Positions 2,263 to 47,954 of a stretch of 64,000 bases of DNA are shown here, one piece after another (the first letter of the stretch is position 1; each line of letters opens with the position of its first letter). A program made the position numbers and the translations under genes. This DNA comes from Rhizaria sp. SCN 62-66 (lineage: Eukaryota). Location: the NCBI GenBank assembly GCA_001724265.1, contig MEDY01000325.1, positions 1 through 64,000 on the forward strand, written 5' to 3'. A model generated the notes under the pieces. That model had not been told where the DNA came from, made no database searches, and saw only the letters and a list, made by a program, of their open reading frames with translations.

Positions 2263-2677
2263 GAGCTAAGCAAGGGTTGACACCAGGTGTGACACGAAAG
2301 AAAAGAAAGTGGGCGTGAGTTGGGAGGCGTTGAGGGGCGGTGAGGCTTGGTTGGCAGCTCGCCAGGCGGAAGATTGGGGATCCGATTTGGGACACCGCCC
2401 AAGCAAAAGGACGCACAGGCAACTAAATAGAATTCACTTCATGCTGTTATTTAAGTAGAATCAAGTTGCAAACTGCAACAACGGACGATTTGGCGAGACC
2501 TGGACTCTGCCGAAATGACGGCGTTATGCGCAACGACGTCGTCGGCGGACTGGAGATGACCGTGAGCATCCCAGCCACCCGTTGGCTCGACAACAGAACA
2601 AGAACCTGAAATGCCGTGTGCGATATATCTGAGCTCTTTAAGTTTTCAAACGCAGATTACGCATTGTTTAAGTCGTT

Positions 2678-5600: not shown

Positions 5601-8600
5601 TCGCAACGGTTGCAGCGACAACTGTGCCGGCGACAACAGCCGGACTGTCATCTGGTGCGGCGACAGCGTTTGGGTTGGCGGCGGCAGCTCTATCGCTCAC
5701 CCCAACGGTCGCTCTCGAGTCGCAGCTGGTCCGTCTCGTGAGTGCAAAGACGGAGCCTGGCGCCCCGGGCACTGCGCTAACCCTTGTGCCGCCAACCAAG
5801 CCCCGTGCTGCGTCGGTGCCGCTGCGGGCGAGCCCGCTCACGGAGGCGTCCGGCGCGAGCCCTGCAGGCGCGGACGCGAGTCTTAACACCAGTGCAAGCA
5901 CCGACAGTGAGGGAGCTAAAGCGAAAGCCACTGCGTTGATGCCGCAGCTGTTTGCAATTAGCAGTGATAGTCGCAGTAGCAGTAACATACGGGAGCGGCA
6001 GCTACAGCAGCAGCACTTGCAACAGTCGCAACAAAGGCAGGGCCAAGATCTTTTGCTAGCGAGCAGTATCAGTGATTACGGCACTGGACACAGTGACACG
6101 CGCACAGCGCCTAGCTACATCCATCCGTACCCGCAGCTGAGGACGACAGCAGATGGAGACCTCAACGACCTGAGCGTCTTCTTTGACGCTTTTGACACGC
6201 TTGGTGCCGACACCATGGCGCCCGATGCGGCTGAAAATGCAGGTAAAACGTATATCTCTGGAGGCGATACAGCTGCCGGTCTAAGGATTGCACGCGCAGC
6301 CACAACCACACCTGCTCTAGAAGCCGATACAACGGTCGATGTAGCTGAAGACGTTATTGATGCAGGCACTTCTGCCGCTGCTGAGAACATTGTTGACAAG
6401 GACAGTGCTTCCTCCGGCGCCGTTGTAACAGTGACCTCGGAGCCCGTTGTCGCAACACCGGATCACGAGAGCGGCGGCGGCGTTCGAGGCAAGTTCAAGC
6501 TTAATGGAGCAGCGGCGGCGGCAAAGCGAGCAGAGTATGACGACCGTAACCTTGAGCAAATCCTCTATCCCACCCGAGAAGACGACCACGATGAGAACAG
6601 CGTCCACAGCAGTTTCTTGCTCCGCAATCGCGAAGAGAGCAACGAAAAAGCAAACACGCACGACGTTTCTTTTTCGCGCCGCGAAATCGGCAACACTTTA
6701 CGCGGCAGCCTCCGCAGCGCTATTGCGAGTAGCAAAGACAAATCGACCTTCATTGCTAGTAGTAGCGCTCTTGGTGGCGCCGGCCAAGATGGAAAGGGCA
6801 GCGAGGATAATAGTTTGCGCGCGCAGCAGCAAGCAGCGAAACAAAAGCTAGATCTTGATCACGTGCCTCAAGTCAGCTCTCCAGTGCCGCATGCTCGCTT
6901 GAAGCTTCACGCAAGCCCGTACAGCGGCATTACTACAAACACGAGTCACACTCTTAATATGACCCATGCGCCGCCAATGGGAACAGTAACACCGCTCCAT
7001 ATTACAAGCGCGCCTGCGACTACGGGTCCATCGTTGGTGCCGGCGTTACCACACGGCGGCGTCGTGCATTTGCTCTCAGCGAGCAGCCGCGCCGCTACGC
7101 CTGCCACATCTCCGCGCATGGGCACACGCACGGGCACACATACGACTACAACGACAAGCACCAGCATCAACTTTAGCAGCAACGGTGTCGTTGGCAGTCA
7201 CGGACTCAGTCTGTGCCCCAGTCTAAGCCATGCTAGCCAGGGGCGGGCTCGGAGCCACAGCCATGGCGGTAGTGGCGGCGGCAGCAGCAGCCGGCGCAAA
7301 CGGCTGCAAGCCACTGTCCTAACTGACAAGGCAACTACAGCTGCCCTTGCCGCAGCGGCTGAGGCGGCAACTGCCGCAGGCGCCGGCGTCGGCTCGTTCG
7401 TGCCTGTGCCTTTGCTGCCAGGCTTGTCTCGCGTCAACAGCATTGCCAGCGGCACCAGCGGCACCAGCGGCACCAGCGGCAGTAGTCGCGCCAGCAACAG
7501 TGATGAAGGCGACATCGACGATGATAGCGGAAACCCGCGCACAGGCCCAATGGATAGCACTTTAAGTAGCAATGTTCCAAGCACGACGCTTGAAACATCT
7601 GGTAAAAACCTCATCGGTGGACGCCTTGGCTTTGCCGCCGGTCTCGGTGTTTGGGGAGCAAAGGCTAGTGGCAGCGGCAGCGGTGGGCTGACGAGCTCTA
7701 GCTTGAGTGCAAGTGGCGGTGTTGACGGCGTCAGCGGCGGAGTACTATGGACTCACGGAGGTCGCGGTACTGTATTTGGTGACGAACAAAGCAAAAGCGA
7801 AACCGACAGCACGTGTGTCTATAGTAACACCAGCAATCTCAGCAATGGTGCAAGCGTGACCAGCGAAAGCCTGAGCCCAAGCCGAAGTCGCAGCCGGCAG
7901 AGACACTTTAAGAGCTACGATAATACGTCTACGCCAAGCAGTGACGTCGAGAAAGAGGAATATAGCGCTGAGGCCTACTATAACAAACACGGAACTGGAG
8001 ACGAGCAGTTTCACTTGCACGCGGGCGCGGCGTCTCCAACTAAAGACATAGCACAACTTGCAGCAGTTGCAGCCGCATCAGTAGCGGCAGCAATGGCCGC
8101 GGCCAGTGACAAAACTACTAAATCGCAACGTGCGAGTGCACGTACAACAGACATCGGAACACCCTCCATTCTTGACTCGAGCAAAAGCGCAACAGAGAGC
8201 AGCAACGTTGATGTGGTGCGAGAGTGCAGACAGTTTGTGAAGGGATTGCGCGCCGCCAAAGGCCGCAGTTATAAACACTCGAGGAAACTGTACCAAACAT
8301 ATGCGCCTCATGGCATTGTTCGTGCTCTTAGCGACAGTAAACCTGACTCGGCTGAAGGCGTTAACAAGAGTACCGGGGTTGATGTTGGCAGTCGTCTGAA
8401 CAAAAGCAGCAACAACAAAGACGACGAAGAGTTTGACATGGATGACTTTCTGGGTAACGTAAGTGACAACGTCAGCGACATGGCATTTCGCGACGAAGAT
8501 GATGATCGTGATCACATCAGCGCAACGGGGTCCGGCGCAATCGGCGGCATGTCGCACTCAGGCAGTGTCAGCGTTCTATGCGCTGGTCTTCGCAGGCCTA

Positions 8601-11600
8601 GTCGGAATGCAAGTCGTATCCAGAGTCCATACCTAAGTCGCACTCAGAGCCACGCTCACAGTCACAGTCGAAGCCACAGTCGTGCGCATAGCCGCAGCCG
8701 CAGTCAAAGCCCTGGTCGCACGCATAGCGACAGTGGCAGCTTAAGTCAACGTGATAAGAGCAAAGCAGTTGAGAACATTGGTCAAACCGCAATCACCAAA
8801 AGTAGCAGCCTTGCTGTCAGCCAAGAAATTCCTGGTATTGTGCGCGCTGTAAGTGCCAAGCAGCTTGGTAGCCAGGAAAGCAGCAGCACTAATAGGGGCA
8901 TTGATCCGAGCATTGGTGGCCTTGCAGATAGCAACATTGGCTCTGTCATTGCAACTCCAGCGGCTCCTAGCAGCAATGTCACAAACTACCCATCGAACAC
9001 GGCTACAACTGATACCGCTAAGACGGCTGAGGTTACAACGGGACATGAGATTCTGGCTGTCGACAGTGAGGCCTATCGTGGGCCCGGCACCAACGCACTT
9101 AAGAGCACAGAAAACGACACCGAGAGTGTTTTGGGGAGCGGTAGTGGCAGTGGCACCGGCAGCGGTGAATGTGGCAGTCGTGGCGTTGGAATTGGCGTGC
9201 TAATCCTGCCACCTGCGCTGCAAGACGAGTTTGCAGCCGCAACAGCGTCGTCGAGCAGTCTCTCAACGACTTACGATGAGGAAGACGGAGACTATGTCTG
9301 CAAGCGTACCGAGAGTAGCAGCAGTAGCAGCAGTAGTAGCGGCAGCGCAGACAGTAGCGACAGTGCTCGTGGGCGTGGTGTTGGCAATGGTGGGGGCAAA
9401 AGCAGACTCGATACGAAGAGCTACGCACAGCTCAAGAGCAGCAGCAAGAGCAGTTGTAACGTGGGCAGCAGTGCTTCGAATGTCAACATTAACACCAGCG
9501 CTGGTCCAAGCGCTAGCAGTGACAGCCGCGATAGCCACCGCACATTGAGCACGAGCACGGTGCGGCGCTTGTTTAAGCTTGGCGATGGCAAACAAGATCA
9601 GCTGTACAGTATGGGCGCAAGCGACACTGCTGCCAACAAGGCACAACATAAGACACTGCGATTTGCTGCGTCGAGCACAAACGTGGCTGAAGCGGGTAAG
9701 TTTAGTGCTAGTTCTGCAGAAAGACTGTCACATCATTTGGAGTCGCCCGTGGTGACTCTAAGCAGGGGACGGCAGCGCAGTGTAAGTGTAACAACTGACG
9801 ACGCGGATGGTGATGACGAGGAAAGCACACACCTTGACATCAGTAAAACTCACGCCAAGAGTGAAAACGTCAAAAATAAGGCTGAGATCAGCAGTATTAG
9901 TGCCACAAACAATAGCAGTCGTAGTCGCAACAGCAGCGTTGATGCAAAGCTCAGCTTCGTGGATGACAATGAACACGTAAACAGCAGTAGCAAGAGCAGC
10001 CACAGGCACGTTCGCAGTCAGCGTAGCAGCAACAGCAACAGCCGCAGCCGCAGTCGTAGTCGCAGTCGGGTTCGTTCGAAACAAAGCAGCGCTGGTGGCG
10101 GTGAACGCAACTATATGCGTGAGCAAGAACGCAACCCAAATTTGTTGGTCTTAGACAACCATGCACGCAAACTTGCCGCTGCTGCGTTTGCATCTAGCGC
10201 ACGAGAGAGTTCGACAACAACAGCAACGACTGGAACAGGCTCAAGTGGTCAGGAGGCACAGTCGCAGCGTCCGCCCATGACAGCAGAGCAACAGCAACTG
10301 CAGCAGCGGTACTGGCAGCGGCAACAGCAGCAGCAGTTGAAGCAGAGACATCACAAGTGTGCGTGGGGATACAGGACCCGCTCCCCGCCGCCACTGCGGT
10401 CGCTCTGTGTGTCGCCAGTCGCAACTGCAACAACGCCGCCAACAGTGATCATGCCTAGGATTCTCAAACTAGACACTTCCTCTTGCGCAGATGCGACAAG
10501 CAGCTTGAGCACGAACTCTTCAGGCGTTAACGTCGCACGGGAGCTACCCGTAAAAGCTGGATCTCTGACTGGCATTTGCCCCAACTGTGACGGCAGCAGC
10601 AGCGCAGATACGGCTGGAGTTAGCGCTACAAATGGGCGTAGTGTATCGCGGACGTTGTACTCGCTTAAAGAATACGAAGAAGAGAGTACCGATGGTGATG
10701 ACGCGCGCAAGTCAAGCGCGAGCGCGCGCAAGTCAAGCACGAGCGCAATTCCGAGCAGTATCGCGGGCACAAGTACAACGACTACCGACTCTCGCACCAA
10801 TCTTGCGCAACAGCAACAGACGACGCAGCAACAACAGTTGCAAGGACAGCAGCTTCCCACCACGCAGCAGCGCAAGAGAAGGCGGAGCGCCACCTCGCCT
10901 TTTGCCCTTCCGCTGGCGACGCCCACTGCCGTAAGCGGACACGAGTGGCGGGCCGCTGGCACAGTTGCAGCGCCACGTCAAACGGTTATTGGTCAGCAGG
11001 ATTCTGCCGCAACATCGTCGAAAGCGTTGTTAACACTGCAACCGTCCGACATGGTAAACCAAAATGGCGCAATTGCAGCAAGCCATAGCCGCGACATCAG
11101 TGTTAGCCGTGACCGCGAAAAAACGAAGCGTCGAAGTCGCACTCGCGGTTACGGCAAGACCGGAGAACAGTACGATGGACAACATTAGCAGCTCAGTCAA
11201 CTGAAGTCGCAGCAACGTTTACGCAACGAAGCGCAAAACATCAGCATTAGCAGCAGCATGGATGTTGCGAATAGTGCAAACCATGTCAAGGTTAAGTGCA
11301 GAAGCTGTGGCAATAGCAGCGGTAGCAGCTCGACAACTAAACACAGCACGCAACACAGTGATCCGACATTAAAGCAGACTCATGCACAAACGCATGCCCT
11401 TGCACACGCCCCTGTGCAAACTCGTTCACAAACACTGATGCAGCCGCAGCCACATCTTGAGACGCGTGTCGTTTCAATGCCAATCACACTTCATATGCCA
11501 ACCAGTATTAACGCAAAAACGTATTTGGACGCGGGAGTCAATGCAAACACAAGTACAAACGCGGGCACAGTTCGAAACGTTGGCGGTATCGTGAGCGGCA

Positions 11601-12844
11601 GTGACCAAATTGTATGTTTCAAGCGCACCCACAGGCCCGGCGCCCGCACGGCCGCGCCAAGCCGCGCGACAAGCCCAGTCCCCGGTCTGGTCGCGGGCGG
11701 CCAGTCGGCGCTCGCGGCGTCGCTGGCCGCAGGGCGCCACGGCAGGGCCTGTGCGGATAGCGCAGGCCACGCGGTTGCTGTTGGAATTGCGGGGCCGACG
11801 CGCGCGTTTGTGTTACAGCAATTGGGAGAGCTTGCTGCGGCTACAGCGGCTGAGGAAGAGGCTGTGGTCGCTGCGGCATCAACTGGCGCAGCTGCAAAAC
11901 ACGGCGGTAAGCCGGCGGCTGCAGAGATGAGCGGAGTGAATGTAAGCAATGGACTAGTCTGGCAGCCGCATCAACAGCCGCAGCAGCAGCACGACGTTGT
12001 CATAATTGGCCGAACCAACAGCAGCGACCGTGAGCACAGCAGCTTACACAGGCACAGCCATGACACTGTCAGTGATCACGGCCACCACGGCGCTCACAGC
12101 CACCGCCTTGGCCACGCTCGTGACCACGCACGGCCTCACCGCGTTCACCGCGCCGCAGACGGCAGCCTGACAATTGACCGCGAGCCCACGCCCCCAAGCG
12201 GCCGCGACCAGTGGCTGGCTTTCCTCACCCGCCTCTGCTTCACCGCGCCCGCGCCGCCGGCCGACCGCAGCAAGGGTGAACTTGGCGGCACGTTGACGCT
12301 GCACAGGCTGGGCGTTGGCTCAAGCGTGATCATTGGAAACCTCAATAAGCTTCACACTGACCCGCAGAGAAACGTCGGTGCTCATATTCGCACTGGTCCA
12401 CGCGCACATGTTGACGATCGCCAAGATAAACCTATGAGTGAGCTTGCAAACAAAGCCGATGCAGCGGCAGATGACGCGCACAGCGATAGCAAAAGCAGTC
12501 GCAGTGAACGGGGACGCCGCCGTGATCGTGGGGGACAGAGCGGTCCTGTTGGGAAGAGCGGAAGTGATGCCCACGGAAGCGCGCACGTCAGATGTAGCTC
12601 TAGCGCTGGCGTTAAGACTAGCACGCCCAAGAGCGATATCGGCGACGCTACTGTCTCCACCACAGCGACCTCTGCGACGCCGCCAGTGGTGGCTGCGGTG
12701 CGGGCCTCAGCTGCGGCAGCGGCTGCAACGGCGGCAACAATCGCCGCCAAAGCAACGGAAGCGGCTGCGGAGTCTGCCGGCGTGCCGGGCGTGGTGCTTG
12801 TGCTCGCGCGCGCCCGGTCAGCGCCGAATATGAGGGCGAAGTGA
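2678..12844 (+). CDS. Giant (~3,390 codon) Ser/Ala/Thr-rich low-complexity protein of unknown function; one frame if TAG is a sense codon
   Basis: ORF-track pieces 2678-2974, 3140-3760, 3953-4315, 4814-11188 and 11258-12844 share one frame. They are separated only by TAG (2972, 3758, 4313, 4427, 4748, 11186), with no in-frame TAA/TGA until TGA at 12842-12844. The true start is uncertain (ATG 2678, ATG 2780 or an upstream exon). No domain recognised. Confidence 0.65.
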
Positions 12845-24500: not shown

Positions 24501-27027
24501 GGCCACCGCGGCCTCCTGCGCGACGCCCTCCTGGGCGCGGGCAGCGAGGGCCGCGCGGGCGCGAACGAGAGCCGCGTCCCTGAGGCAGGTGGAAGCAACA
24601 AAAGTACAAGAGAAGATATCGAAGGCATGTGAGAAACTTCGTTCCTAAACGTGAGAAATGAAGAGATATCATCTATGTAACTCCTGTGGTATGTAACAAC
24701 TAGTCATATTCAGTTCGATCTCAGCGGTAAATCTTCATGTGAAGTTTGGTTATAATGTACCTTGCGAAGACCGCCTGTTGGAGCTCCCCCGCGAGCGCCC
24801 GCAGCGCCTCGTGGTTGCCGTCCTTCCGCTGGCCGACCTCGGTGCGCAGCGACGCCGCCAGCAGCCGTTGCGCCTGCTCGCGTGCGGCCCGCCCGTCCTC
24901 TTTGGCGGCAGTGAGCTGGGTGTAGAGCCCGCGCTCGCGGTCGCGGCCCGAGTCGAGGGCCGCACGCGCCTGTGACAGCGCCTGCGCCGTGGCGGCCAGC
25001 TCGTCGGCCACGGCCGCGCGGGACTGGTCCTGCAGCTGCTCCGTTTGGGCGCGGTCCGCCGTCGCCGCAGACAGCTTGCGGTGCAGCAGGTCGCGGTCGA
25101 GCTGAGGAGGAGGGAAAGAGCAAAAACAAAAGCAAGAAAGAATTTGATAAAGTATGAGGATATAGAGGAACGGCATGTTTTTCACGTCGCGTAATTAAAT
25201 GATTATCAGCATCTATATCAGACTGGACAAAAATATACGCGATTTGATCGATACTCAAGAGATATCGTCTGAAATGTCACAATCCTGATCGCTCTTGTTG
25301 CGAGAATAATATATTTTCTCAAGACGTACCTCAACCGCGGCGCGCGCGCGCTCGCTGGCCGTGAGCCTCTGTGCCGCCTCGGCCAGCGCGTTGGTCACGT
25401 TGGCCGTGGCGTGGTACGAGTGCATGTCCACCGTCAGCGGCGACACGAAGCCGGTGGTGATGTTATGACCACTATTTGCATGTGTCCCCCCACGGGTGCC
25501 GCTGGTACCCCCGCGAGTATTACGGCGGAGACCGGGAGTGCTGCTGCGTGCGTAAGGGGGCTTGTGCAAGCCTGCATTGCTCATGCCACCTAAACTGGCA
25601 CTGCCACTGTCGAAATGACCAGTATGGCTCTGTAAGTGTGTGCTGAGAGGCAGGTGGTTGTGGTACAGCGCAAGGTCGTCGTCGTTGCCGTACTAGTGCG
25701 CCGTGTCGCTGCTCTTGCTGTACTTGTAGTCCGTCTCGCCGTTGTCTTTGATGCCGTAGTGGCTGGGGCTCTTGAGCGTGTTGACGTTGAAGTTGATCCC
25801 GTGGTTTTTGAGCAGCGTCGTCAGTGTCGGCACGGCCACGCCAAGCTGCTGCGCCGCGCTGAACTCGTACCCGTAGCCGGAGCCTGTCTCGGGCTCCAAA
25901 GCTAGGCCGCCCCGCTGCAGGGACCGCGAGACGGGCGCAGAACCGGGCCGTCGACGGGTGGAAATACTGTTACTACTGCTAGCGCCGCTGCTGCTGCTGT
26001 TCAGGCCAGTGCTGCGGTCCCAGCCCCGCGTGCCCGCAAGCGTACACGCGGCGTCACGTGTACCAGGTGTGTTGTAGTCACGAGTGCCATCTTCGCCATA
26101 GCTACTATTATGACTGCTGTCGTACCTGTCGTAGCTATTGTGAGCGTGGCCATTGTCGTTGTCATAGTGCACGTACTTGGGTTTCCCGACCGGCCAGCCC
26201 GCGGCCTTGCCCCGACCGCGGCCCCGCACCACCGCCGCGGCGCCCGCGCCCAGCCGTGCGCGCGCTGCCGCGTCCTCGGCCGTCGCGATGGCCGCTGCCG
26301 ATTGCGGGTCCGAGTCGCGCATCGCCCGCTCCAGGTCCGCGGCGGAGGGCAGAAGGTAGCGGTCATTGACGGCGGCGGTGCCGGTGATGTCGTGATCGAG
26401 CCAGTGCCGCCGCTGCCAGCCCGCGTGGAGCCGCTCGGCGTGTGGAACAAGGGCCTGGGAGAGCGCGCGCTGAGACAGGCCGCCCTTGTCCTCGCGGGGC
26501 TGGGCTAAACGGGCGGCCTCTTGTGCGAAGTAGGACAAGTTGCTCCTCGTAACACTACTCGCGGGGTCCGCGTTATGAGCGCCAGAGCCGGTATAGCCAA
26601 CGCCGCCGAGACCGTCGTAACTGCTGTTACTGCTCGCAGGCGGGTGATAGCCCGTGTAGCTGTTGTTAAGGAATATAGCGTTGTTGTGGGTGTGGGGCCG
26701 GGCACTGCCCCAGAGTTCAGGCGCCCCCGACGCGCCGCCGCTGCCGCCATCGCCGGCCACTGGGGAGGCCGCAAACGTCGCGGCATATGCCGACCCGGGC
26801 CCCGCTCCCGCGCTGGCGGCAGCTGCGGAGGGCGCAGACTGCAGCTGAGAGGCGGTCGCGACGTGTTGGTAGTGGGAGGGATCTGTCGCGGCGGCGAGCG
26901 GGCGGAAGGCGTGCAGCGGCGGCGGAGGCACGTCCATGCTCGCGTGACGCGCGCGAGAGCTGAACATTACGGGCGGCACGGGCGGAGGGTCCGTGCCGGC
27001 AGCGGCGCTGATATAGCTGCTGCTCAT
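21567..27027 (-). CDS. Large low-complexity protein with a central Ala/Arg/Glu/Gln-rich probable coiled coil; unknown function; 4 exons; one in-frame TAG
   Basis: Exons 27027-25330, 25101-24761, 24579-23142 and 23024-21567 join in frame at GT-AG sites. Exon 1 continues in frame through TAG at 25695-25693 into ORF 25255-25584. Ends TAA. Confidence 0.65.
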
Positions 27028-28168
27028 GTGTTGGGTGAGATCAAGCGGAGCAAAAGTGTGCCTCTGCTTCTGAGGGGTAGAAACGAGACTGCAGGGAGGC
27101 GAGGGTGTACATGCAAGAGATGAAAATTGAATGGCAATGAGATATTCTTGAGACAGTTCAATGAGTGAAAAGACAAATGCATAGACGGAAGTTGTGAGAC
27201 TGTAGCGATGGTCCTGAATCGAGCGCGACTGGTGCCATACTTCCGCTTGTGTCGCCAGATCTCGCCTTCTTCAAGGCATCAGGAGACGTCTTCATTGACA
27301 ACATGAGTTGTACAACTCACAGGGAAACAATATGTATGTCGTTTTTCTTTCATTCTCCTCGATGTTCGTCTCCGTTCCACAGTCGCTGCTGCTTCTAAGG
27401 TAACTGCGCCAGTGGCCCCAGCACCTGCTCTAGATGACCTATGGGCGTGTGAAAGAATGATAATTACCGGTGGGCAGTAGTTGTCTCGAAATTGAGCGAA
27501 ATAAAGACAAATGCGACGACAGATTTTAAGACAACACATAATGTCAGTTCTTATAAGATAAAAATGCAAAGATTGTATGCGTATTTGCACCATCAATCAA
27601 AACAGTTCAGAACTAACTGTACCGACAAACATAGACAGAAAAACTCACAAAATATACAAATCTCACAATGAAAGACACACGAAGACTAGCTAACAAAGTA
27701 AATAACATTACCTTGCACACAGCAGTAGCAATAACAAGAACAGCCAAGAAAGAAAACAAAAACAGCGACAACAATCATCACAGTACGGCTGTTGCGAATA
27801 TTTTGGAGGTGACAGTCTCATCAAATGAATCAGCAAGCAATCAAGCATGCAAGCAAGCAAACAAACAGGCATACATGCAGAGAAAAACAAGTGACAAACA
27901 CCCACAATTTGGTGCAATGCAATACTCAATGATTGCACAAACAAACATAAAGGACTGCACAAACAAAACAAACAAACAAAACAACAACAACAAAAAACAT
28001 GTTGACACCCAAGCCTGTCTACTTACATTAATAATAATACAACAACACAACAAACGTAAGTAAGTCATCACTTCGATGATACAAAATAAACACAAAGAAA
28101 ACAAAGCAAAGCACAGCAAAGCCAAGCAACGCCGCAGTGGAGGCCCTTAGCCGGCCCTTGGCCGGCCT

Positions 28169-33074: not shown

Positions 33075-33904
33075 ACGAACACAACGACAGGGCTTCTCGG
33101 GCTCAGCGTCGACGGAAGAATAATGTATATCGGCTTTGAAAATGCTGAGAAACGAAAGCCCAAGTCTTCGACTGGTGACCAAGTTGTGTGATAAGTGGTC
33201 TATTTCGGAGCAAATTCGAATGTACCACAGATTAAATTATTAAAATGTATGTTTTTGTTTGTATTCCTGCTTGGTATCCGCAGGTTTTGTTTCAAACAGC
33301 AGCCGTGATGGCACTTGTGAGCGCTAAGGTGACAAGTGACCGCAGACCGTGACTGGCTGGGACGAAGCAACCAGAGCCCGCGCTCTCGAGGGCTCTTGCG
33401 CGGAACGCTGCAGGGTATCTTTGGGGCGAGTTATCTAGACCGATGAAACGTAAAATAGCATACATGAATCATATTTTGTTTCTACGCGAATTATTTATTC
33501 ACTGCATCTTTTTATATGAGCTCCACCTTTTGATAAGCTAGACGTATGCGACCATTCCTCACACCTCTTTGACTGCATCTCAACCTCGACTGTTCACCTA
33601 TCATTCGGTCACAATGGTTTGTTCATTTCAACTGAATATGTCATTACCAGGGCTTTACAACTTAGAAACGTCTAATAAGTGTCATATCATTGCCAGGCGT
33701 CTTGGACTCTCTGTTGCAGCCGTCTACGCCGCCCTTTGCGCACCGCGCTTTGGACTAGGACTCCCCAGCGTCCAACAAGTTCACATCTCTCATCTCACAC
33801 TCTCGCAATCGCAGTCGGTCATATCTGCCCGCGCGTCTTGTGTCTCCAGCTTTGCCCAACGCTTTTAACCGCGCGTGTCTTTGCGTGCAGCTCGCCGTGG
33901 CCCG

Positions 33905-34988
33905 ATGTCGCACTCGTACAAGGGCCGCGCCGATCCAGGCAGCAGTCTCAGTCGCAGCAACAGCCTCCCTCGGTCGACGGGTTCGAGCGCCAAACCCGAC
34001 GCGAGCTCGTCCATTGTCGTGAACACGAGCTCTATTGTTCACCCTACCGCTCAGGGGAGTAGCGTAAGTAAGAAAGTTAGCCGCACACCGAGTGCTTCCG
34101 TCTCCGGCAGCAGTGGGAGTTCTCTCCAGTTTGCGTCGCTGATCGCTGACTCTAACGCGGCCGCGGCCAAGCGCCGGCGGCATGCGGAGTCTCACAGCAA
34201 ACGCGACCGCAAGTCCGAGAGCGCGCAGCCCAAGAGCGCAACCACGGCGAAAAGTCCGGGTTCCAGCCGTCCGGGCCTTGAAGCGAGCGGTCACAGCAAG
34301 GCAGCGGCAGCGTCTCTGATGCGCGACCGTCTCTCGAGCAAGGTGAGTTCTCTTAGCGCTTACGCGAGCGCCACGTCCATCTCTGACGCCGGCAAGACTG
34401 GCAGGGGCGCGAAGCCCGCTCCGCCCGACATCACCGCTTCCATCACCGCCTCCGTCGCTGCCGACGCGACTAACGCGTCCAAAGACGCGGCTAAGGCCAA
34501 GACCATCGCAAGCATTATCGGCATCGCCGACAGGGACGCGGCGGCCCAGGCGGCGGTTCGGGCGGCGGACGACGCGAAGATCGACGGACTGGCCGCGTCA
34601 CTGCACGCGGCCTCAGCGGGCCTCATCGACCACGGAGCCGCCGTGCGCGCCGCAGTCGAGGCGTACGAGGCCAGCGAGGCAGACCGACGCCGCTAGCGCC
34701 GCGACGCGCAGGCCAAGAAGGGGCTGAGGTCCGCCGCCGCCGCTACCGCCGCCGCCGCTACCGCCGCCGCCGCCGCCGCTTCTGTTGATGCGAGTGCTGT
34801 TGCTACCGTGGCTGTCACGGCAGCAACCGCAACTTCTGCTGGAGTGTCGAGACTGACACAGCCGCGTTCACAACCGCAGGCGTAGTCACAGTCTAAATTA
34901 CAGTCTAAGTCACAACAGCCACAGGCATAGCACTCGCAGGCATAGCAGTCGCAGCTGCCGCCGCGGCAGGAGCAACAGCGTCAGCAAG

Positions 34989-35077
<89 letters not shown>

Positions 35078-38000
35078 AACAACAACAACAACAACAACAA
35101 TATCAGCAGCGTGACAAGCTTCCATCACAGATCAATCTCGCAAACGACTCCGAGACGGATTCTGAAACCGACACTAAATCCTGCACCGACGACTCCGACG
35201 CTGACTCCAGCACGGACACTGATGTGGCTTCCACGCCCGTGGCAAAGCCCCGCCGTGGAGATGGCAACGGCAGCGCCAACAGTGCAGACAAGAGGCGCAG
35301 CGGCCGAACCAACGACAGCGTGAACTACAACGAAACCGTCGCCTCAGAGTCTGACTCTGATTCCGACTCTGATCGCAGTTCGAGCTCCAACACGGGTCCA
35401 GGCCTCAAGCCGGCAGCGACTCAGCCGAGCGCTAATGCTGGCCATGTCTCTGCGTCTGACTCCGACTCTGGCTCTAGCTCGGACTCCGAATCATCCAAGA
35501 GCTCTGGCTCCGACTCGGATTCCGGCGTTGCTATCGAAAGTGACGACGATGATATCAAGGCTGGCCACGCCAACAAGAGCGACATCAGTGCTGGAGTCGG
35601 TATAACCGCTGAGTTGGCAAGGATTATTAGTCGCAACAGCGAAAGCAACCCCGATCGCGACTATGATGATAACGACGACGATCAGAGTGTTCAGACGATT
35701 GCCAGCAGCAGAGGCGGGGTTCTGCAAATGGCCCCCAGTGCAACTGTGCGGATTTTCTGGGACATGCCGCCCGCGGCCAGCAGCAGCAAGCTTCAGTCAG
35801 TGCCGCGCCACGTTAAAGCCGACGACGATGATGACGACGGCACTGTGTGCGCGTTGTTCAAGGCCAATACGCCTACGAAGCGGGCACCAAGTAACGCAGC
35901 AACGCCGCATTCCCAGTCATCGTCACAGGAGGCGCGGTCGAGCGCGAGCTCTAGTCAAGTCATTTTCCCTATCACTGGCACCCGCGCTGGCTCCGTCACT
36001 GCCACCACGGCGTCGAAGCCAACTGCTGTGGCGAAGGGGCCCAAGAGCCGGCGTCTTCAGACGCTCGACCAGTCTGACGCAGACTCTGACTCCGACGACA
36101 TTGAGGTCCCAAGCGAGACGGCGGCGGTGAATGGCACAGCTCCCGCACTAACTGCCCTAACCAGCTCTCGGACCGCGGATGCTGTGAGCGTTGGCTCCGC
36201 TCGTGCGCACCGCAACTTGACTTCCCCTGCCCCTGTCGGTGCTGCCGAGTCAGCTGAGCCTGCCGGGACTGCGGGGGCCGCGGGTCGCTCGCAGGTCGCC
36301 AGATCGGCCGCGGGTAATGAACCGGCTGTCATAAGTGACAGTGACCCTGACAGTCAAAATGGTTGTGACAGCTGTGTTACGATCTCGTCATCGAGCTCCG
36401 ACTCCGAGACTGATTCCTAGACGGATTCTGACTCGGCCTCGGACACTGCCACTGGCGGTAAATCTGTCGCCGACGCTGCCGCTGGCACCGACGTTAACCG
36501 TGTACCAATGCCTGGCGTGAACGCTAAGAGCTAGGATGACGGTGAGGATGAATCTCCCACTGTGACTGAGTCTACTGAGTCAGAGTCGGAATCAGGATCA
36601 GACTCCCCGGTCATGGTGCCTGTGAGTGACCGTGAGCAGCGCAAGAGAGTTCGCGAGCAGAGTCTGCACAAGATGCTGCAGCAACAAGTCCTCCAGCAAC
36701 AGCAGCAACAGCAACAGCAACGCGTCGCCGAGGCGTCTTACTCCGCAGACTCAGCGGTGGGTGTTGCGAGTGCCGGTCTGAGTAACCCTGAGGCCGCTCC
36801 TGTTGCGAATGCAGCAAGCGACCGGCGGGTCGGTGGGCGCGGCAAGGTCTCAGCGTCTGCCCGCACAGCAACGGTACCAGCACCAACAACAACAGCAACA
36901 GTTATAGCAATGCCGCAAGCTCTGTCTGCGCCAAACGTCATTGATGGGAATCCTAACCGCAGCTGCGATGTCGTCGCCAGTGACAGCGATGACAGCGATG
37001 ACATTGGTGATGAGGAGGCGGATGATGATGATGGTACTGATGACGAGCAAGATGAACACGAAAACGGAGACAATGACGTCCGTGAGATTGCCTGCGACAG
37101 TGACGAAGGCTTCGAAAACACAAGCAGCAAACGTGCTCGACTTGCATCTGCTTCTGCACCCAAGACCTCTGGTCTTAAATTTGACTCCGATAGTGACTCT
37201 GGTGATCATGCTGAGCGCACGCCGAGTGACCGTGAGCAGCAGCAGCAGCAGCTTGAACAACTGCACTCCCATCGCAGTCCTCGCCTCAGTCGCCGCTCTT
37301 GCCAGAGTGACCGTGAGCGCAGTCGCCGCGAGCGCGCGCTGGCCCTGCTGAAGCGCCCCAGCTCTCTGTCCGCCGGCGCGCTGCTCGTGCTCGCGCCGCC
37401 GGTGTGGACGCTGTTGCCGCCGTGCCTCGCGCACAACGAAGTGATCACGATCCAGCTCCGCTTCCTCGTCAACTCCGACAGCAGCCCTGACACGGGGGCC
37501 GGCGCGCGCGCGCTCACTGCGGGCACCGGGACCGAAAAAATCGCGTCCCTGCGGCAGGTCCACCAGTCGGAGCAGATCACATTCGGCGCTTCCGACTGCG
37601 CCTCCGTCTGGCCGGGCGCGTACATGAGCGACGCCGCGCTGGACCTGGCATTCGCGCTCGTGCAGGCGCGCGCGCCGCAGCCACCTTCGCTGGCCTCGCT
37701 GGCGGCGCTCGCGGCCGCGAAGCCCGCGGCGACCGCGGCGACCGCGGCGGGCGAGAACGCGCCGCCGGCGACTGCTACAGTGACCGTGGGCGGGGTGGCC
37801 GTGGGCAGCGGCACGCTCCGCGCAGTCCGTGCGCTGCCGTACGGCGCGCCGGTGCAGAGCAGCGTGGTGTACTCATCGCTCTTCGTGCCATCGCTGCGGC
37901 CCAACGCGCCGCAGCAGGCGCAACTCAAGCGCGACCGCGAGGCCGAGCTGGCCCACGCGTACGAGAGTGTTCGACACATGCTCACTGCGTTCGGTCCCCT

Positions 38001-41000
38001 CGGTCAAAACCAGGCTCAGCAATGGCAGGACAGCGCGGGCGTGAGTGGCAGTGCGAGCGCGGCTGCTGCCAATGAGGCCGGGCTTTGCGACTCGCATTCG
38101 CACTCGCGCATTTTCGCTGATCCCCTGCCCAGTCTGCAGTCGCAGATGCAAGCGCTATTGCGTCCGCAGCCCGCACGGAGCTCGCAGAATTGCCTCGACA
38201 ACTTCTCTGACTGTGACGACGACGACGACACCGACAGCAACAACAGCATGGCCAGTCGGAGTCACAACAGCCACGGTCAGAAGCGCGGCGGTCCATCGTC
38301 GCTGAGCGCGCATCCCGGTGCGATGGACGGCGACGGCAGCGAGAGCGAATGCGGGCACGAGAGCGACTGCGTGCGCGAACGCATGAGCGAGCTGGAGGAG
38401 CAGAGCGAAGAGGACGACGACGACGAGTACTACTCGCGCAACAGCTACATCGTCGCTAACTACAAGATGGTGACCGCGCTCACTGCGGCGGCGCATGGAC
38501 GCGACGGCAGCAGCAGCATTAGCAGCAGCAGCAGCGGCAGCAGCACCGAATATAGCAGCACTGGCTCTGATCATCAGACGAGCGTGAGCGACGGTATGAA
38601 CAGTGGCCGCAGCAATTTGGCTGGCGCGGTGCATGCTACCTTTCGCAACAGCAGTGGCAGTAAGAGCGCCAAATCTGCGGCTAAGATTTCTAGCACCACT
38701 GCGAGCACGAACGATACGACGAATAGTTTCAGCAACGACTTGGCTCTCGCCGCTTTGCCGACACACGCAGAAGCCGTCACCTACTGGCGCATGGCGACAG
38801 AGGGGCGGCTTAACTTATCCCCGCACTGCGAGATCCTGCGGCCGCTCCGCGCAGACGCGTGGGTACCTCCGCATGTTGACGAAAACACGCCGGCACCGCA
38901 GCCGGCGACAGCGTCCGGCGCCGCGACAGCGGGTGGGAGCGCGAGAGCGCATCCGCCGCTGATGACTGCGCCGGGGCTGTGGCGCGTGGGCATCCCCACC
39001 GCGGTGCATCACAGCTCTCACTCTACGACCTCCGCCTTGGTGGCTCCTGCTCTTGCCGCTGCTGCTACTGCTGCTGCTTCCGCTCCTGTTGCGAGTGTCG
39101 CTGCAGCGGCGCCCGCGGTCAATGACGACGACCGTGACCTCGACGCTGAGGACGAGTTCGACGCCTTGCGGCCCAGCCAGGCCACCAGTGTCTCCGGCCG
39201 CATCGGCGGCGGGGGCGGCGGCGGCATCATCGCCGGTATGTGGCCGCGGCAGCCCTTGGACTGGTATGCTGATCCTGCGACCGACTACGTCCGTGGGGTC
39301 GGGACCTCCAAGTACTCAGGACAGTATTTGCGTGCGCCTCAGGTGCCGCGCACTCTTAACGACTCGCTATTCGCGCCTCTCAGAGTCACTAACTCCCCTG
39401 ATATCAGCAGCTCTCATTTGTTTACTGACAATGTCAACGTTATTCCAATCTACAGTAGCAACAACAACAGCAGCGACAGCCTCTACGCGCAGCTCCGGAC
39501 TCAGCTGCGCTTGCACTCTCAGCCGCAGTCTGAGGCACGGTCGCATCGCCACGAGCGCCCGTACCCGCAGTCTCCCTGGGGCTTCGTGACTGCGTCCTCG
39601 GCGGCCGCCCTGCCGGTCCTGCCGCCGCACGCGTGGGCGGGCACTTACACGCGCTACCACCCCCTTACACCGCCGCCGTACCGCCGCGCGCAGCACGGCG
39701 CCGCGCAGAGCGCGCTGTACAGGGCGATCCGCAACGCGCAGGACAAGTAGCAGCAACAAGAGAGTCACCGCGCTGACGGTGGCGCAGCTTCTGCTCGGCC
39801 CACGGCCAGCGCGAGCGCGCGCGTTGTGCCCGCTGCGGCGGCGCTCAGCGTCGCGCAGAAGGTGTCCCCGCGCACAGCTGAGCACCACCACGCCAGGCGG
39901 CAGCAGGAGCAGCTCGAGCAGCAGCAACACGAGCAGCTGCTGCAGCAGAGGCGGCAGCTCCGGCAGCAGCAGCAGCGCGAGCAGCGCCGCGCCGTGCTGC
40001 GGGCACACGCGCGCGCGCTGCTGCTGCGGAGCCTGCGGCTGCCGGCGCCGCTGCCGCTGGTGCACGGGCTGTGGTTCGACCGCGTTGCGCGCTGGATGCG
40101 CCGCACTGACGTCTTCGCCGCCGACGCGCTGTGCCTGCCGCTTATCTCACAGAACCACTGGACGCTGCTGCTCGTCCACGGACTGCTGCGCTGGCGCGTG
40201 CGCGAGGCTCGCGTCGCGCGCAGGGCCGAGCGGTACGCGCTCGCGCTCGCGCGGGCGCAGGCCGCGGGCGCTAAGGCGGCCGTGGCGGCGGCGGCGGCGC
40301 ACGCGATCATCGCAGCGTTCGATGGCATCAGCAAGAGCGATACCACTGGCGTCAACAACTCCGCAGGCAATGCTGCGAGAGGCTACGGTGGTGGCGCCTC
40401 TTCCGCTGCTGCTGCGGGCGTCGACCTAGCCCAGGCTCTTACAGCTGCTCTGGCCTATAACGGCCAGCACGGCCGTCGCGGCCTCCACGGTCACGGCCTC
40501 GGCGGTACGGGTGTACACAGTCAATCCGCGCCCGCGCACAGCCTCGCTCTGCTCAACGCGGCCTCCCGCAACGGCGGCGGCGCCACTGCTGCCGCTGCCG
40601 CTTTGATCTCGGCCGAGACTGTGCAGGCCGCGGTCGCGCGCGCCGCCGCCACCGCCTCTGCCGCGGCGGACGCTGTGACTGCCGCGACAGACGCGGCTCG
40701 CCAGCTGGAGCGCGCGGCCGGGGCGCTGCTGGCCGGCGACTGCTGCGTACTTCTGGTCAACTCGCTGCAGAACCACAAGGAAGAGCTCATCTACGCCTAC
40801 TCGAGCGGCAGGACGCTGATCAAGGGCGCGGCCAAAACAGGGCTCCAGGTGCCGCCGGCGCTGCTGGGCCGCTCGATGACGGCGCCACCTAACGAGGCAA
40901 GCGTTGTCATTCACAGCAACAGCAACGGTGCGACGAGTAAGAGCAGGAACAAGAGGAAGGACGCGAATAAGCTGGCTGCTCAACTAAAGGCGGCCACGGC

Positions 41001-44000
41001 TGCCGCGTCTAAGGGCGCGTCGCCTCTCAGTGCAAAGCTGTGTGGCTCCGCGAGCAAGAATGCTGCTACTGATGCTGCGCCGAAGATTACTGGCAATGCT
41101 GTTTCTGCTGATACTACGACTAGCAAGACCAAGAGCCCCAACCCCAAGGTCACTGCGACAGCGCCCAATGTTCGCGCACGCGTTGCCAGCCCTCTAGCTG
41201 CTAGCCTTGGCAACGAAAAGGATCGGGCTGCAGCAGTGGCGGTCGCCAACGCGTCGAAGCAACTGAAGCGGGCCTTCGCAGACTTGATTGGCAACAACGA
41301 TAGCAACAGCGATGACAGCGACGAAAGTGACAGCGAAAGTGACAGCAGTGGCACCGGCGCTGTCATTGGTGCTCAAACCATGAACGACAACGATGACGAC
41401 GATGATACTGCTGATGCCACGACTGGCGGTACTGCTCACGACGCCAACGCTGACGAAGACAACGAGGATGAGGACGAGGACGCCGCTGACGACGACGCTG
41501 CCAATGACGATGACGACGATGACACCGACGACACCGACGTCGATCACGACGACGCTGGCGGCGTAACCTCTGCTAATAGCGCAACCCCCCGGTGCGGTAT
41601 TCCGGCCCCCGTGATGAACGCGTCCCCGGTCACCGCGCTCCTCGCCGCGGGCTATTGCATCGTGCGCCCCGCGCGTCTGCACCCGGACCCCTTAGTCGGC
41701 GCCATCTGCAGGTACTTAGACCAGCTCTGGCTCGAGCCCGCCAACGCGCCGCACCGTGCGCTCGTGCTCGCGGTCCGCAACGGCTGCGGCGACGAGGCCC
41801 AGGACGACGCGGAGGACGACCGCGCCGCCGCCGACGCCGCCGCCGCGGGCGCCGCGATGACGGCAGCTCTCGCAGGTTCTCACCCTGCAACGGCAACTGC
41901 CACTGCGAGCTCGAGTGCGAGTGCGAGCTGTGTCACAGAGGGAGGCGCCCCGTCTGGGTTGGTTGCAGAGCAGTACATCAGGCTGGCGCGGGAGCTGCGC
42001 AGGAGCCCGTACTATGCGGTTCCGAAAAAAGCGCCTGCGAACGACGCGTTCTGCCCCTGCAACAACTGCATCAACAACAACGTCAACGGCTCTACTGGTT
42101 TAAACGCCGCCAATGTTCACTCCAGCGCCTCTGGCAACGTCGCGAACCCGAGTCACGCGGGGCCGGCCGCCGCTGCGGAGGTGGTGAACGTCGGCGTGGG
42201 CGTCGTCGGCGGCGACAAGTGCCTGCACCGGCGGCTGCACGAGCGGGCCTACACCAAGCGGCCCAGCGCCGAGAGCGTGGCGTGCCTGTTCGAGCCCACG
42301 CCCGCGCAGCTGCGGTCGCTGCGCATTGTCGCGGGCTCGCACAGTGTCGCTGTCGATAGTGCGGCTGAGGATCACAACCACAGCTTCATTGCGAAGCAGG
42401 AGCAGCTTTGGCACTACTACAAGCACTCTCTTCCTGCTTCGGTTGCCAACACCGTCCCTCAAGTCTTTGCTCAGCAGTCGCACACCCGTTCCCACCGCGC
42501 TGCCGCGTCCAAGCCGCTGTCTAAGTACCCCTTAGACGCCGCGTCCCCGGCCTTCGCGCTGCCGCTGTACGCCGCGGCGCCGCACTGCCCTTCGTTCCTG
42601 CTGCTCCCCACAGTGACCCTGGACTCGCCGCAGCAGCGCAACGGCGCCGACTGCGGCCCCTTCGCCTCGGCTTTTGCCAGCGCGCACCTGCAGCGGCCGC
42701 TTACGCTCGCGGGCGGGCTGGGCGCGGTGGTCCGCCGCGCGGGCGCCGTGGCGGCCGCGCAGGCCGAAGCACAGCGCGTCATGATCGCCGGTCTGCTTGC
42801 GACGGTGCACAATAATAACAAGGCTGCGCTCAGCACCAGCGCGGCGGGCAGCGGGGCGAGCAGCGCGAATGTGAAGCAAGGCCCGTTGTCGTTAATTCTG
42901 ACGCCGACGCCGTTTTACGCTGCAAGCGACGCCAGTGCGCATGATGGCTTCGCCTGTGTTGGTGCTGGAATTACGGCGATGTGCGATGACGCTCACAGTT
43001 GCTATGCGCAGACAGGCCACTTAGTGAGTCGTGCTCACGGTCACTTCGAGTGCTGCGCGTCGCCAGCGCCGGTTTGGACGTGGACGCCGCTACCAGCGCT
43101 CACAACCACTGCCAAGACCACGACTACTAGTGTTGCTGCGCCAGATGAGGTGACTGCGCCCACGGTCACTCCGCTGACTCTCGAGGCATCGCGCACGCGG
43201 CTGAACTTTGCGACGAGCGAGATCAAACGCCGCGTGCGTGAAAAGCTCATCGAGCTCATCATGGCTGCGAGCAACCAGAGCTCCAGCAGCGCGACCGCGG
43301 CGGCCGCGACGCCGCCCGCGTCGCTGCTGCTGGCGTCGCAGCCACACGTTAAGTCCGAGCATGGTGGCGTGCAGATGTCGCTGTCGAGCAAGCTCCAGCT
43401 CTTGCAAAGCGCTCCTAGTGCGTGGAGCCCCAGCTCTCTGCTCAGTGCGATTGCCGGCCTTCACCCTGGCGGTAACGCCGGCGCCAGTCGTGGCCAGCTC
43501 GCGCTTGCCGTCGCACTCAAGGGTCACGCCTCAGACTCCAAGCACGACGTGAACTCTGGCGCTGGCCCTGCTGTCGGCGCTACTGCCGTTTCTCGCCCTA
43601 ACCAGCGGCTGGGCCTGGGCCTCGCCCCCGCCCAAGTCTCGGCCGGCGGCGAGCAGTTCACCGCTGTCGGCCTGGCAGAGGCCGTGGGCCAGGTTGGGCT
43701 CACCAACTGGGACGCCGCGGCACTGCTGCGCGCCGCGCTGAACAAGGACACGGGTGACGACTACGTCAACGACTACAACGACCTCAACGCTCTGGGCGAG
43801 TTTAGCGACTCTGATGGTGATAGCGGCAGCGACCGTGACGGGAGCGACCCTGGTTTGGCCCAAAGTACGAACGCGACTGAGAAGGAGAACAACGAGGATG
43901 ACGATGTGGGCACCGCGAATGGCTCCGATCGCAACAACCTCTCGACCCAGTCAAATGACCGTGACTCGCGCTCTGCTGATCCCAGCTCTGACGCCACGGC

Positions 44001-45897
44001 TTATCACAACGCCGTGAACAGGGGCCTCACCTCGAGCCGCAGCAGCGCCCGCGTCCGCAGCGGCGCGCAGCTGAGAGGCTACGCGGGCATGGACGGCAAC
44101 GACAGCGACTACGAGAGCGGCGGCAAGACCAAGAACAGCGGCACGGGGCTCTTCGCGCAGCCCATTCTGGCGCCGCTGATCTCTGCTGTGATGCGAGAGT
44201 ACACCGCGCAGGAGCTCGTGAAGGACCAGGAGCGGGCGCAGAAGCAGCTGGCCAAGCTTGTGCAACGCGCGCAGAAGCAAGAGGGTCAAGGCAGCTCGCA
44301 TAGTGGGTGTGTAGTGACCGCGGACGGCGCTGTCATGCCGTGCAAGTGCTGCGCCGGAGTCACCAAGTGTTGTATGCTGCCTCGCTTGAACAACACCAGT
44401 GGCAAGGGCGCGATTGGCAAGCAGAGTCTACGCTGTGTACGTTCGAGCGCGACTGATCACTCTCTCGGTCTCGATGCAAACAGCGCTCCTCTTGACGCTG
44501 GCGCTCCTGCGTTCTACTTACACCTTGACAAGAAGAACCCTGCTGACGCATCTGTGATTGGCTTGGCAGTTCAGAACGAGTGCCTGGCGCGCTTGTTGGC
44601 GTTCTCAAAGCAACAAGCTGGTTCCGGTGATGCTTCCAACGACAATGCTGACAGTTTTGGCTTCATTGCGACGCCTTCTGCAAATCTCGCTGATACTGCC
44701 CGCGCCAGCGTCTGCAACTGTGGTTTTGCTCCCGGTGCGCTGAAGATGTGCCTGTGTCGTCTCGCCTCAGAGAGCTCCAACGCTGCTGCGGTCGCGGCTG
44801 TAGCTCTGACTCCTGCGAGAGCGAGAGCCTTGCCGACAGTGCCAGCTTCTCCTGTTAGAGTTGCTTCCGGTGCGGGCACTCGTACGTCGTTGAGCTCGAG
44901 CACGAGCTCAAGCCTTGACGGCTCTGACGATGACTCGATCATGATTATCGACTCGGACTCTGAAGCTGACGCTGACACCGATGACGACATCGGCACGACC
45001 GCTCGCAGGAGCAGGAATCCGAAAGCTTCTGCAAAGAAGTCGAGTCGCGCGAGCCACGCCGTCACCGACGCGCTCCCGGCCGCGAATGCCGACACCAGTC
45101 CCAACAAGGCCGCGGGCGGGTCCCCAACGCGGGCCGGCCGCGGCGGCGGCGAGTATGCTACGCCGAAGCCCCCCGTCAGTGCTTCGCGCGTCGGCCACTT
45201 GCGTCTGAGCGCTGTGGCCGACAGCCCCGCGCTGGACGGTGCCGGGAGCGCGAGCCCGCCGACGCGCGGCCGCAAGCGCAACGCGGCCTCGATGGACGCC
45301 GGCGCGAACGCGACTCCCGTGGCAACTGACGCGCGTCTCAGTCGCAATGCAAGCCACTCTGATATCTTTATTGACGTTGACGATGACAGTGACAACGCTG
45401 ATGAAGATAGTCATAGCGCGATCGCGCAGCAACGCAAGCGCTCGCACAAAGCCAGCGACAGCGCTCAAAACACCAACGCTCGCATGCCCGCCGGTGACGG
45501 CGCGAAGGGGGGTCGCAAGTCGAGCTTGGGCTCGCCCGTGGTCGTCAGTGTCGACAGTCACGCCGATGCCAGCAAGAGTGCCAGCAAGATCAAGCGCAGG
45601 TCCATGGCTGTAGATGCCGACGCTTTGCAGGAGTCCGAATCTGCCGCTGCCGTGGCTGCTGAGAATGTGGTTACGGCGGTGTCCAAGGTGACTCGCGGTC
45701 GGCCGCGCGCGTCGACCGGCGAGGCAGAGGCGGAGGCGCTGGCTGTGACTTCGGTTTCGATCTCTGCCACAAGCAAGCATGTGAGTGCGATGCCGATGAA
45801 AATGACGCGCAGCGCTAGCAATAATGCTGTTATCGTCGACACGAACGCAAAGACTGACACTGACACCGAAAAGTCAGGTCGGTCAAGGCGCCGGTGA
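33905..45897 (+). CDS. Giant (~4,000 aa) Ulp1/SENP-like (C48) SUMO-protease-family protein with an insertion-fragmented catalytic domain; 7 in-frame TAG and one apparent 1-nt frameshift in a CAA tract
   Basis: C48-like motifs occur in canonical order: WPGAYMSDAALD (~37610), YSSLF (~37870), FDRVARWMRRTDVFAADALCLPLISQNHWTLLLV (His 40156), VLLVNSL (40759), PQQRNGADCGPF (Cys 42652). In-frame TAGs at 34694, 34883, 34928, 34943, 36418, 36532 and 39748. A C is missing at 35077/35078. Ends TGA. The start is uncertain. Confidence 0.72.
34991..35100 (+). repeat. (CAA)29-AA-(CAA)7 microsatellite, polyglutamine-coding
   Basis: Read directly. One interruption (CAAAAC) at 35075-35080. Confidence 0.95.

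Positions 45898-47873: not shown

Positions 47874-47954
<81 letters not shown>

Follow-up and report, generated by a model that had tools for sequence, protein, structure and literature searches.

Codon UAG as a probable glutamate codon, with UAA and UGA as stops, in the nuclear genome of a rhizarian flagellate

UAG-specific codes and the organism

Nuclear codes in which UAG alone has changed are known with UAG as leucine in exLh, a rhizarian, and in three TARA ciliates, as glutamine in Iotanema, Hartmannula, Trochilia and Protocruzia, and as serine in Scotinosphaera (main texts of PMC5304391 and PMC11687900). UAA and UAG almost always change together according to the main texts of PMC11687900, PMC10553269 and PMC12153298. 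Where UAG is reported there as glutamate, it comes with UAA as lysine (PL0344, PMC10553269) or with UAA as glutamate (Blastocrithidia, PMC12153298; some ciliates, PMC5304391). UAG as glutamate with both UAA and UGA as stops was found to be unreported, and likewise a second rhizarian code, in a partial search of the literature covering mainly the main texts of non-subscription papers.

The genome of Rhizaria sp. SCN 62-66 (GCA_001724265.1) comprises 34.9 Mb in 714 contigs and is characterized by GC-rich exons, AT-richer introns and the presence of axonemal dyneins. The organism is a flagellate. The window, meaning the whole stretch of 64,000 nucleotides that was analyzed, is positions 1 to 64,000 of contig MEDY01000325.1 (C325). 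For this organism a nuclear code is proposed in which UAG would specify glutamate and UAA and UGA would be stops, with a probability of roughly 0.7 on the evidence of the sequences. If true, this is a further variant of the genetic code and a second, different UAG change within Rhizaria, and one genome displays the tRNA, the eRF1 changes and the codon use together. A tree of one dynein heavy chain (34 rows) separates the organism from alveolates and stramenopiles and places it in a 100/99 clade where the cercozoan Mataza sp. D1 is the sole member with a name. This one-gene tree suggests that the organism groups with Cercozoa. Two NCBI proteins, P0121 and P0248, are nearest to the dynein (74% over the core, sister 100/100) and to a protein encoded on contig C154. 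The 18S rRNA gene (L039, G000:C706:4459-8903), about 4.4 kb long, is very divergent and has several long insertions, the first possibly with an open frame; the insertions look like group I introns. In its divergence and interruptions the gene may resemble that of Sainouroidea.

The rhizarian exLh (Sainouroidea), with UAG as leucine and UAA and UGA as stops, shares with the present organism a UAG-only change in a rhizarian nuclear genome and the avoidance of UAG in highly expressed genes (PMC5304391, main text). In contrast to exLh, leucine here lies 21 bits below glutamate in the Pfam sums given below, the variable loop of the tRNA is short and its stem of Glu type, eRF1 retains Leu69 and has a changed Thr32, and UAG is far rarer. 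The ciliates Iotanema spirale, Hartmannula sinica, Trochilia petrani and Protocruzia tuzeti, in which UAG is glutamine and UAA a stop, are UAG-only like the present genome (main texts of PMC5304391 and PMC11687900), whereas the residue here is most likely glutamate. The share of UAG in its synonymous family is about 0.5% here, compared to about 8% in I. spirale and 18.5-31.8% in two phyllopharyngeans (PMC5304391, PMC11687900). Oligohymenophorea sp. PL0344 reads UAG as glutamate by means of tRNA(CUA) genes closest to tRNA-Glu, as would be the case here. It also reads UAA as lysine and has 10 CUA and 12 UUA genes (PMC10553269, main text), whereas here UAA is the commonest stop, one CUA gene is present and no UUA gene was found in the searches described below. 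A Glu-derived tRNA(CUA), avoidance of the reassigned codons in highly expressed genes and eRF1 changes are also shared with Blastocrithidia spp. and the ciliates reading both UAA and UAG as glutamate. These organisms read UAA as glutamate, and Blastocrithidia in addition UGA as tryptophan, in a change described as AT-driven (main texts of PMC12153298 and PMC5304391), whereas the present genome has GC-rich exons and retains UAA and UGA as stops.

UAG in open reading frames

A sequence-only reading of the window had proposed UAG as glutamine, mainly from a low-complexity S/P/A-Q repeat at 34859..34990 (+) with three in-frame TAGs (34883, 34928, 34943). The translation of this Gln-rich stretch is as that reading gave it, the duplicated 15-nt unit it described lies at 34922..34951 (+) with one TAG per copy, and the CAA tract follows directly downstream from 34991. 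The other sites it quoted, at 3758, 4427, 11186 and 39748, are all in-frame TAGs. The CAA (polyQ) tract at 34991..35100 (+) contains a one-base slip at 35078-35079, which shifts the reading frame and may be an assembly error or real. If it is an error, 33905..45897 (+) is probably a single gene of about 4,000 codons, predicted from a Peptidase_C48 match to encode an Ulp1/SENP-type protease. Seven TAGs are in frame over this gene and TAA and TGA are absent; the two parts of 33869-45897 separated by the slip hold four and three TAGs, with zero TAA or TGA. Besides those of the Gln-rich stretch, TAGs were found in an Arg run in the same frame as the stretch (34694..34696, +), in the Glu slot of a D-S-E-T repeat (36418..36420, +), preceding an acidic run (36532..36534, +) and preceding a short Gln run (39748..39750, +). 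The TAGs of the window in acidic slots, at 36418, 36532 and 4313, had been omitted from the earlier reading. The three TAGs of the Gln-rich stretch lie in copies of one repeat unit and may result from one or two mutations, and AAA and AAG also fill the TAG slots of the repeat. The stretch therefore shows the origin of TAG better than its meaning.

A frame of 3390 codons at 2672..12844 (+), with no Pfam match, is open only when TAG is read through and ends in TGA. It contains six TAGs (2972, 3758, 4313, 4427, 4748, 11186) and zero TAA or TGA, compared to 67-232 stops in each of the other five frames over the same interval. On the opposite strand, an in-frame TAG at 25693..25695 (-) lies inside the frame 25255-27270 with coding-like sequence on both sides. 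The open TAG-bearing frames of the window are more than chance. The window gave neither a tRNA match nor an Rfam match. Five Pfam-matched genes in the window look ordinary: an ML domain with a papain-like part (783-1958, -), TPR with glycosyltransferase 41 (16759-19544, +), CDP-alcohol phosphatidyltransferase (31728-33074, +), RNase PH (52229-53278, +) and RhoGEF (54801-58289, +). A Bdp1-like gene with a Myb_DNA-bind_7 match (46324-47964, -) has a frame change at its polyQ tract (47843-47964), as seen in the Ulp1-type gene, and this may be an intron or an assembly slip.

Stop behavior was examined over about 950 kb, close to 1 Mb of the 35-Mb genome, by a Markov model trained on long frames, which picked stops situated after a coding frame. 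In-frame continuation of the coding signal was observed past 23 of 31 TAGs, but only past 1 of 78 TAAs and 2 of 50 TGAs. These counts bear out that UAG, and neither UAA nor UGA, is read as sense. The remaining eight TAGs include two that may be where genes end, one 16 codons before a TGA (L114) and one with a weak upstream signal (L091). UAA is the commonest stop of the genome, and the genes for eRF1 and one dynein terminate at TAA. In-frame UAG is present in conserved genes, i.e. those for eRF1, kinases, SUV3 and a Ubc6-like protein. A kinase on contig C18 has intact HRD, DFG-like and APE motifs behind its TAG, and the TAG-bearing eRF1 and SUV3 genes look essential and single-copy. That UAG is a sense codon in this genome is considered nearly certain.

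The in-frame TAGs could instead be sequencing errors, pseudogene stops or intron ends within a standard code. Many TAGs in domain matches did turn out to be 3' splice sites, an intron-edge rule removed 14 of 64 candidate TAGs, and the Ulp1-type gene of the window also carries the frame slip. Such artefacts are contradicted by the different behavior of TAA and TGA, by the existence of a cognate tRNA(CUA) gene and by the eRF1 gene (L001, C63), where the TAG is located in exon 2, in the part encoding the N domain. This TAG was also found in a separately assembled metagenome contig (L194) without a difference, in a polyA-RNA contig (X7) free of differences across 1166-1817, and in a contig (X5) that is spliced, lacking the 292-nt intron, and likewise free of differences, the transcript contigs being from other studies. 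The agreement of these three contigs rules out error, intron end and editing as sources of the eRF1 TAG; for eRF1 the artefact explanation is refuted, and for the genome as a whole it is highly improbable. TAGs from family searches that were set aside as intron edges or intronic comprise those in DEAD, kinesin, myosin and Ras matches and two of the three in Helicase_C matches. Standard gene callers cut the TAG-bearing proteins short, and a kinase TAG is the exact end point of three database entries. A homologue search with the C18 kinase gave one cluster only, from the same organism and cut at the TAG, and a NEK-like kinase query gave zero matches at its threshold.

The residue at UAG

Deep alignments were made at two TAG sites only, those of eRF1 and the C154 protein. 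The eRF1 column is occupied by Glu in 119 of 120 homologues, and in 75 of 77 in a second set, and one contig from a near relative carries the Glu codon GAG at this site. In the C154 protein, Glu was found in 14 and Gln in one of the 17 nearest homologues, which were collected with Glu at the TAG site and re-ranked with X; among 97 gap-free rows of 113 hits the counts were 24 Glu and 9 Gln. The earlier reading had named conserved non-Gln columns as the observation that would speak against UAG as a synonym for Gln, and both columns are of this kind and both are Glu. Its claim of sense use is upheld, but the Gln identity is not. The weight of such columns was estimated from the organism's own dyneins. 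In columns with at least 95% Glu these have Glu in 140 cases and Gln in 7, the likelihood ratio of a Glu to a Gln codon being 14; columns with 70-95% Glu give a ratio of 4. Conserved Gln columns were never seen to face a TAG; where Gln did stand opposite a TAG, the site was variable.

Less conserved sites gave a more varied picture. The TAG of SUV3 faces Asp in human SUV3 and that of the Ubc6-like protein faces Asp in yeast Ubc6, these being the closest solved relatives, with Ser in others. For ten sites, Pfam scores summed by hand were 530.9 bits for Glu, 526.0 for Gln, 524.1 for Lys, 519.5 for Ser, 509.7 for Tyr, 509.6 for Leu and 506.5 for Trp. Glu leads Gln by 4.9 bits, and one kinase hinge contributed half of this; the closest relatives of known structure carry Ser (KSR) or Gln (Raf) at the hinge site. 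Two additional sites gave Glu leads of 0.0 and -0.2 bits. The sequence-only reading had held that Leu, Glu and Tyr fit the contexts of its sites worse than Gln. UAG as leucine was rejected on the Leu score and on the 36 of 73 bases that the tRNA(CUA) shares with tRNA-Leu(CAG). Comparisons that carried little information were own-paralogue kinase columns, which were too variable, and PDB alignments at a CaMK-like site (Ala or Tyr), at a chromodomain site (gapped) and at a SNF2 site (two Glu and three Val of five).

A code with UAG as glutamine, of the Iotanema type, has precedent (PMC5304391, main text) and is consistent with the Gln at the hinge of Raf kinases and with Gln in three paralogue or duplicate comparisons. 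Two of these are on contig C681, where TAG faces Gln in a ubiquitin-like domain and in an internal duplicate in own-genome comparison; in a paralogue pair one TAG faces Gln and the other Asp. None of the 12 Pfam-scored domain sites, however, favors Gln by more than 0.2 bits, and both deep columns are Glu. The C681 frame (L047, about 1455-3600) has an internal duplication, a ubiquitin-like domain, a Peptidase_S74 domain and two TAGs facing Gln in own paralogues, and is possibly virus-derived or a mobile element. A polyubiquitin junction, sought for a lineage test, was not found. Two contig-end ubiquitin copies are ribosomal-protein fusions (among L274 and L287-L291), and the organism's own ubiquitin at these loci looks, in our judgement, unusually divergent.

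Glutamine was also suggested by Q-rich contexts, in the window and at three further loci (L094, L188 and L113). Neighboring residues were compared for 64 TAGs in 208,185 coding codons, of which the intron-edge rule removed 14 and kept 50; two probably real sites, 3758 in the window and 8015 in L113, were also removed by the rule. The neighbors of the 50 TAGs were 8.0% Gln and 13.8% Asp/Glu, compared to 14.2% and 8.5% for neighbors of CAG and 4.1% and 13.5% for those of GAG. TAG as a plain synonym of CAG, as proposed from the sequence-only reading, was rejected by a Gln-versus-Glu classifier (P <= 0.001, 50 sites), also when three sites of that reading were added (P 0.006) and when the window sites were left out (P 0.004). 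A pure Glu profile was rejected too (P about 0.003), and the Gln-type share of the contexts was estimated at 0.39 (interval 0.13-0.70). The Q-rich contexts are real, but hold for about 40% of the sites only, and such contexts can mislead the reading of a code. In a preceding naive-Bayes context model on the 64 uncleaned sites, Tyr and Ile came out on top owing to contamination by introns; this model was replaced by the cleaned test. If UAG were Gln, synonymy and transition bias would both favor an origin from CAG, and the profile should therefore be almost pure Gln. If UAG were Glu, synonymous GAG>TAG changes together with tolerated CAG>TAG changes would lead to a mixed profile. The Q-rich sites would then be explained by mutation, the CAG>TAG transition being a tolerated Gln-to-Glu change in disordered, low-complexity tracts such as 34859-34990. 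Mixed charging of the tRNA would likewise give a mixed profile.

A CUA anticodon-loop pattern gave eight hits, of which one is a tRNA (G000:C84:76008-76080). The gene is single copy and is followed by a T run, and its Rfam score of 58.0 bits is very similar to the 58.3 bits of the organism's own tRNA-Glu. Of its 73 bases, 47 are identical to tRNA-Glu(CTC), 40 to Glu(TTC), 40 to His, 39 to Asp, 36 to Leu(CAG), 33 to Gln(CTG) and 29 to Gln(TTG), corresponding to a divergence of 36% from tRNA-Glu(CTC). Both Glu tRNAs share its first five acceptor pairs and Glu(TTC) also its discriminator, and the Gln tRNAs differ at both. The tRNA(CUA) therefore has a Glu-type body, and charging with glutamate is probable from its sequence. 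ARAGORN calls any CUA tRNA 'Pyl'. Using the architectural features of tRNA-Pyl as a yardstick, a pyrrolysine tRNA was rejected, as the tRNA(CUA) has an ordinary cloverleaf, GG in the D-loop and TTC in the T-loop. Patterns for CUA tRNAs with a long arm or an intron gave 25 hits and those for UUA tRNAs 23, and no further CUA or UUA tRNA was present in the 34 candidate stretches that had no other explanation. BLAST with the organism's own tRNA-Gln(CTG) returned only its five identical copies, and no Gln-type tRNA(CUA) was found by this search, by the patterns or by a general tRNA search that scored 63 of 506 candidates and could miss an atypical tRNA gene. Taken with the columns and contexts, this makes glutamine a very unlikely meaning of UAG. 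Among the other tRNA genes (L004-L067), those for tRNA-Ala start with G-U-G. Low Rfam scores of about 50-70 bits were obtained for several standard tRNAs, and tRNA-Gln(TTG) appears to have little resemblance to tRNA-Gln(CTG).

The proposed glutamate code would have arisen by duplication of a tRNA-Glu(CUC) gene, the copy changing its anticodon to CUA and keeping the Glu acceptor stem. A CUA anticodon pairs with UAG and not with UAA. UAG would arise synonymously from GAG, and eRF1 would have gained T32S and further substitutions in its N domain, with its recognition of UAG probably weakened as a result.

eRF1 changes and the rarity of UAG

Positions in eRF1 follow human numbering. The Thr of the GTS motif is replaced by Ser (T32S), this Thr being present throughout two sets of homologues (87 of 87 and 72 of 72), and T58K precedes NIKS at a position where Thr is found in 120 of 120 homologues. 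Further changes relative to the homologues are M34V, G57S and K130Q, the last in YxCxxxF. Thr32 bonds or contacts the G of UAG, and is replaced by Gly (T32G) in Iotanema spirale (PMC5304391, main text), where the same position is changed as in the present eRF1. T32S here and T32G in Iotanema suggest a single position in eRF1 at which recognition of UAG in particular is lost, and the N-domain changes seen here, including T32S, probably weaken recognition of UAG.

UAG is very rare. The 50 TAGs in the 208,185 codons examined correspond to about 0.5% of Glu codons, and UAG is nearly absent from conserved genes. Inspection by eye of ten dynein heavy-chain genes, together about 40,000 codons, revealed no exonic TAG, there was none in 149 WD40 or 20 ABC matches, and 11 of 142 kinase matches listed a TAG, some of them intronic. 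The presence of only one tRNA(CUA) gene would make UAG a poor codon and could thereby explain its near absence from conserved genes. Rarity of this degree makes the genome a candidate for the early stage debated between the codon-capture and ambiguous-intermediate models.

UAG could be ambiguous. In such an intermediate state eRF1 would still terminate part of the chains, in competition with the Glu-derived tRNA(CUA), or this tRNA would accept Gln as well as Glu. Mischarging with Gln is frequent among amber suppressors with U35, which counts in favor of such a state. So do the lack of TAG in the dyneins, the single tRNA gene, the mixed contexts and the two TAGs that could be gene ends. UAG at about 0.5% of Glu codons also contrasts with the 6.5-31.8% of phyllopharyngean ciliates (PMC11687900, main text). 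Yet TA-containing codons are rare in general (ATA 70 of 3027 Ile codons, TTA 156 of 10,847 Leu codons), and mutation by itself would also produce the context mixture. With seven TAGs in series, the Ulp1-type gene of the window would be almost silenced if UAG were a leaky stop, and TAG is found inside the essential-looking, single-copy eRF1 and SUV3 genes. An ambiguous UAG is unlikely, and the proposed glutamate code is preferred.

The UAG in the eRF1 gene is suggestive, and no more, of a feedback brake on the release factor. A reassignment still in progress would have UAG partly acting as a stop, a young Glu-derived tRNA set against a half-blind eRF1, and full-length eRF1 dependent on read-through; this is regarded as unlikely. 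Bacterial RF2 has an internal UGA and is autoregulated, and if the partial-stop reading were true, the present eRF1 would be a eukaryotic counterpart of this feedback. The plant eRF1-1 readthrough/NMD circuit also involves a stop-type codon in the release factor's own mRNA (PMC5397192), whereas here the UAG is in frame in the N domain of eRF1. From a rough tally of domain matches, about one TAG is found per 10,000 codons, and a gene of the length of eRF1 has about a 5% chance of having one. A near relative has GAG at the eRF1 TAG site, beside third-position changes (one X4 contig, depth 4.9), which argues against a conserved feedback role and against an ambiguous UAG. A metagenome scan for eRF1 gave one identical contig, all others having at most 71% identity. 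The runs holding eRF1 best were bioreactor, wastewater and activated-sludge metagenomes.
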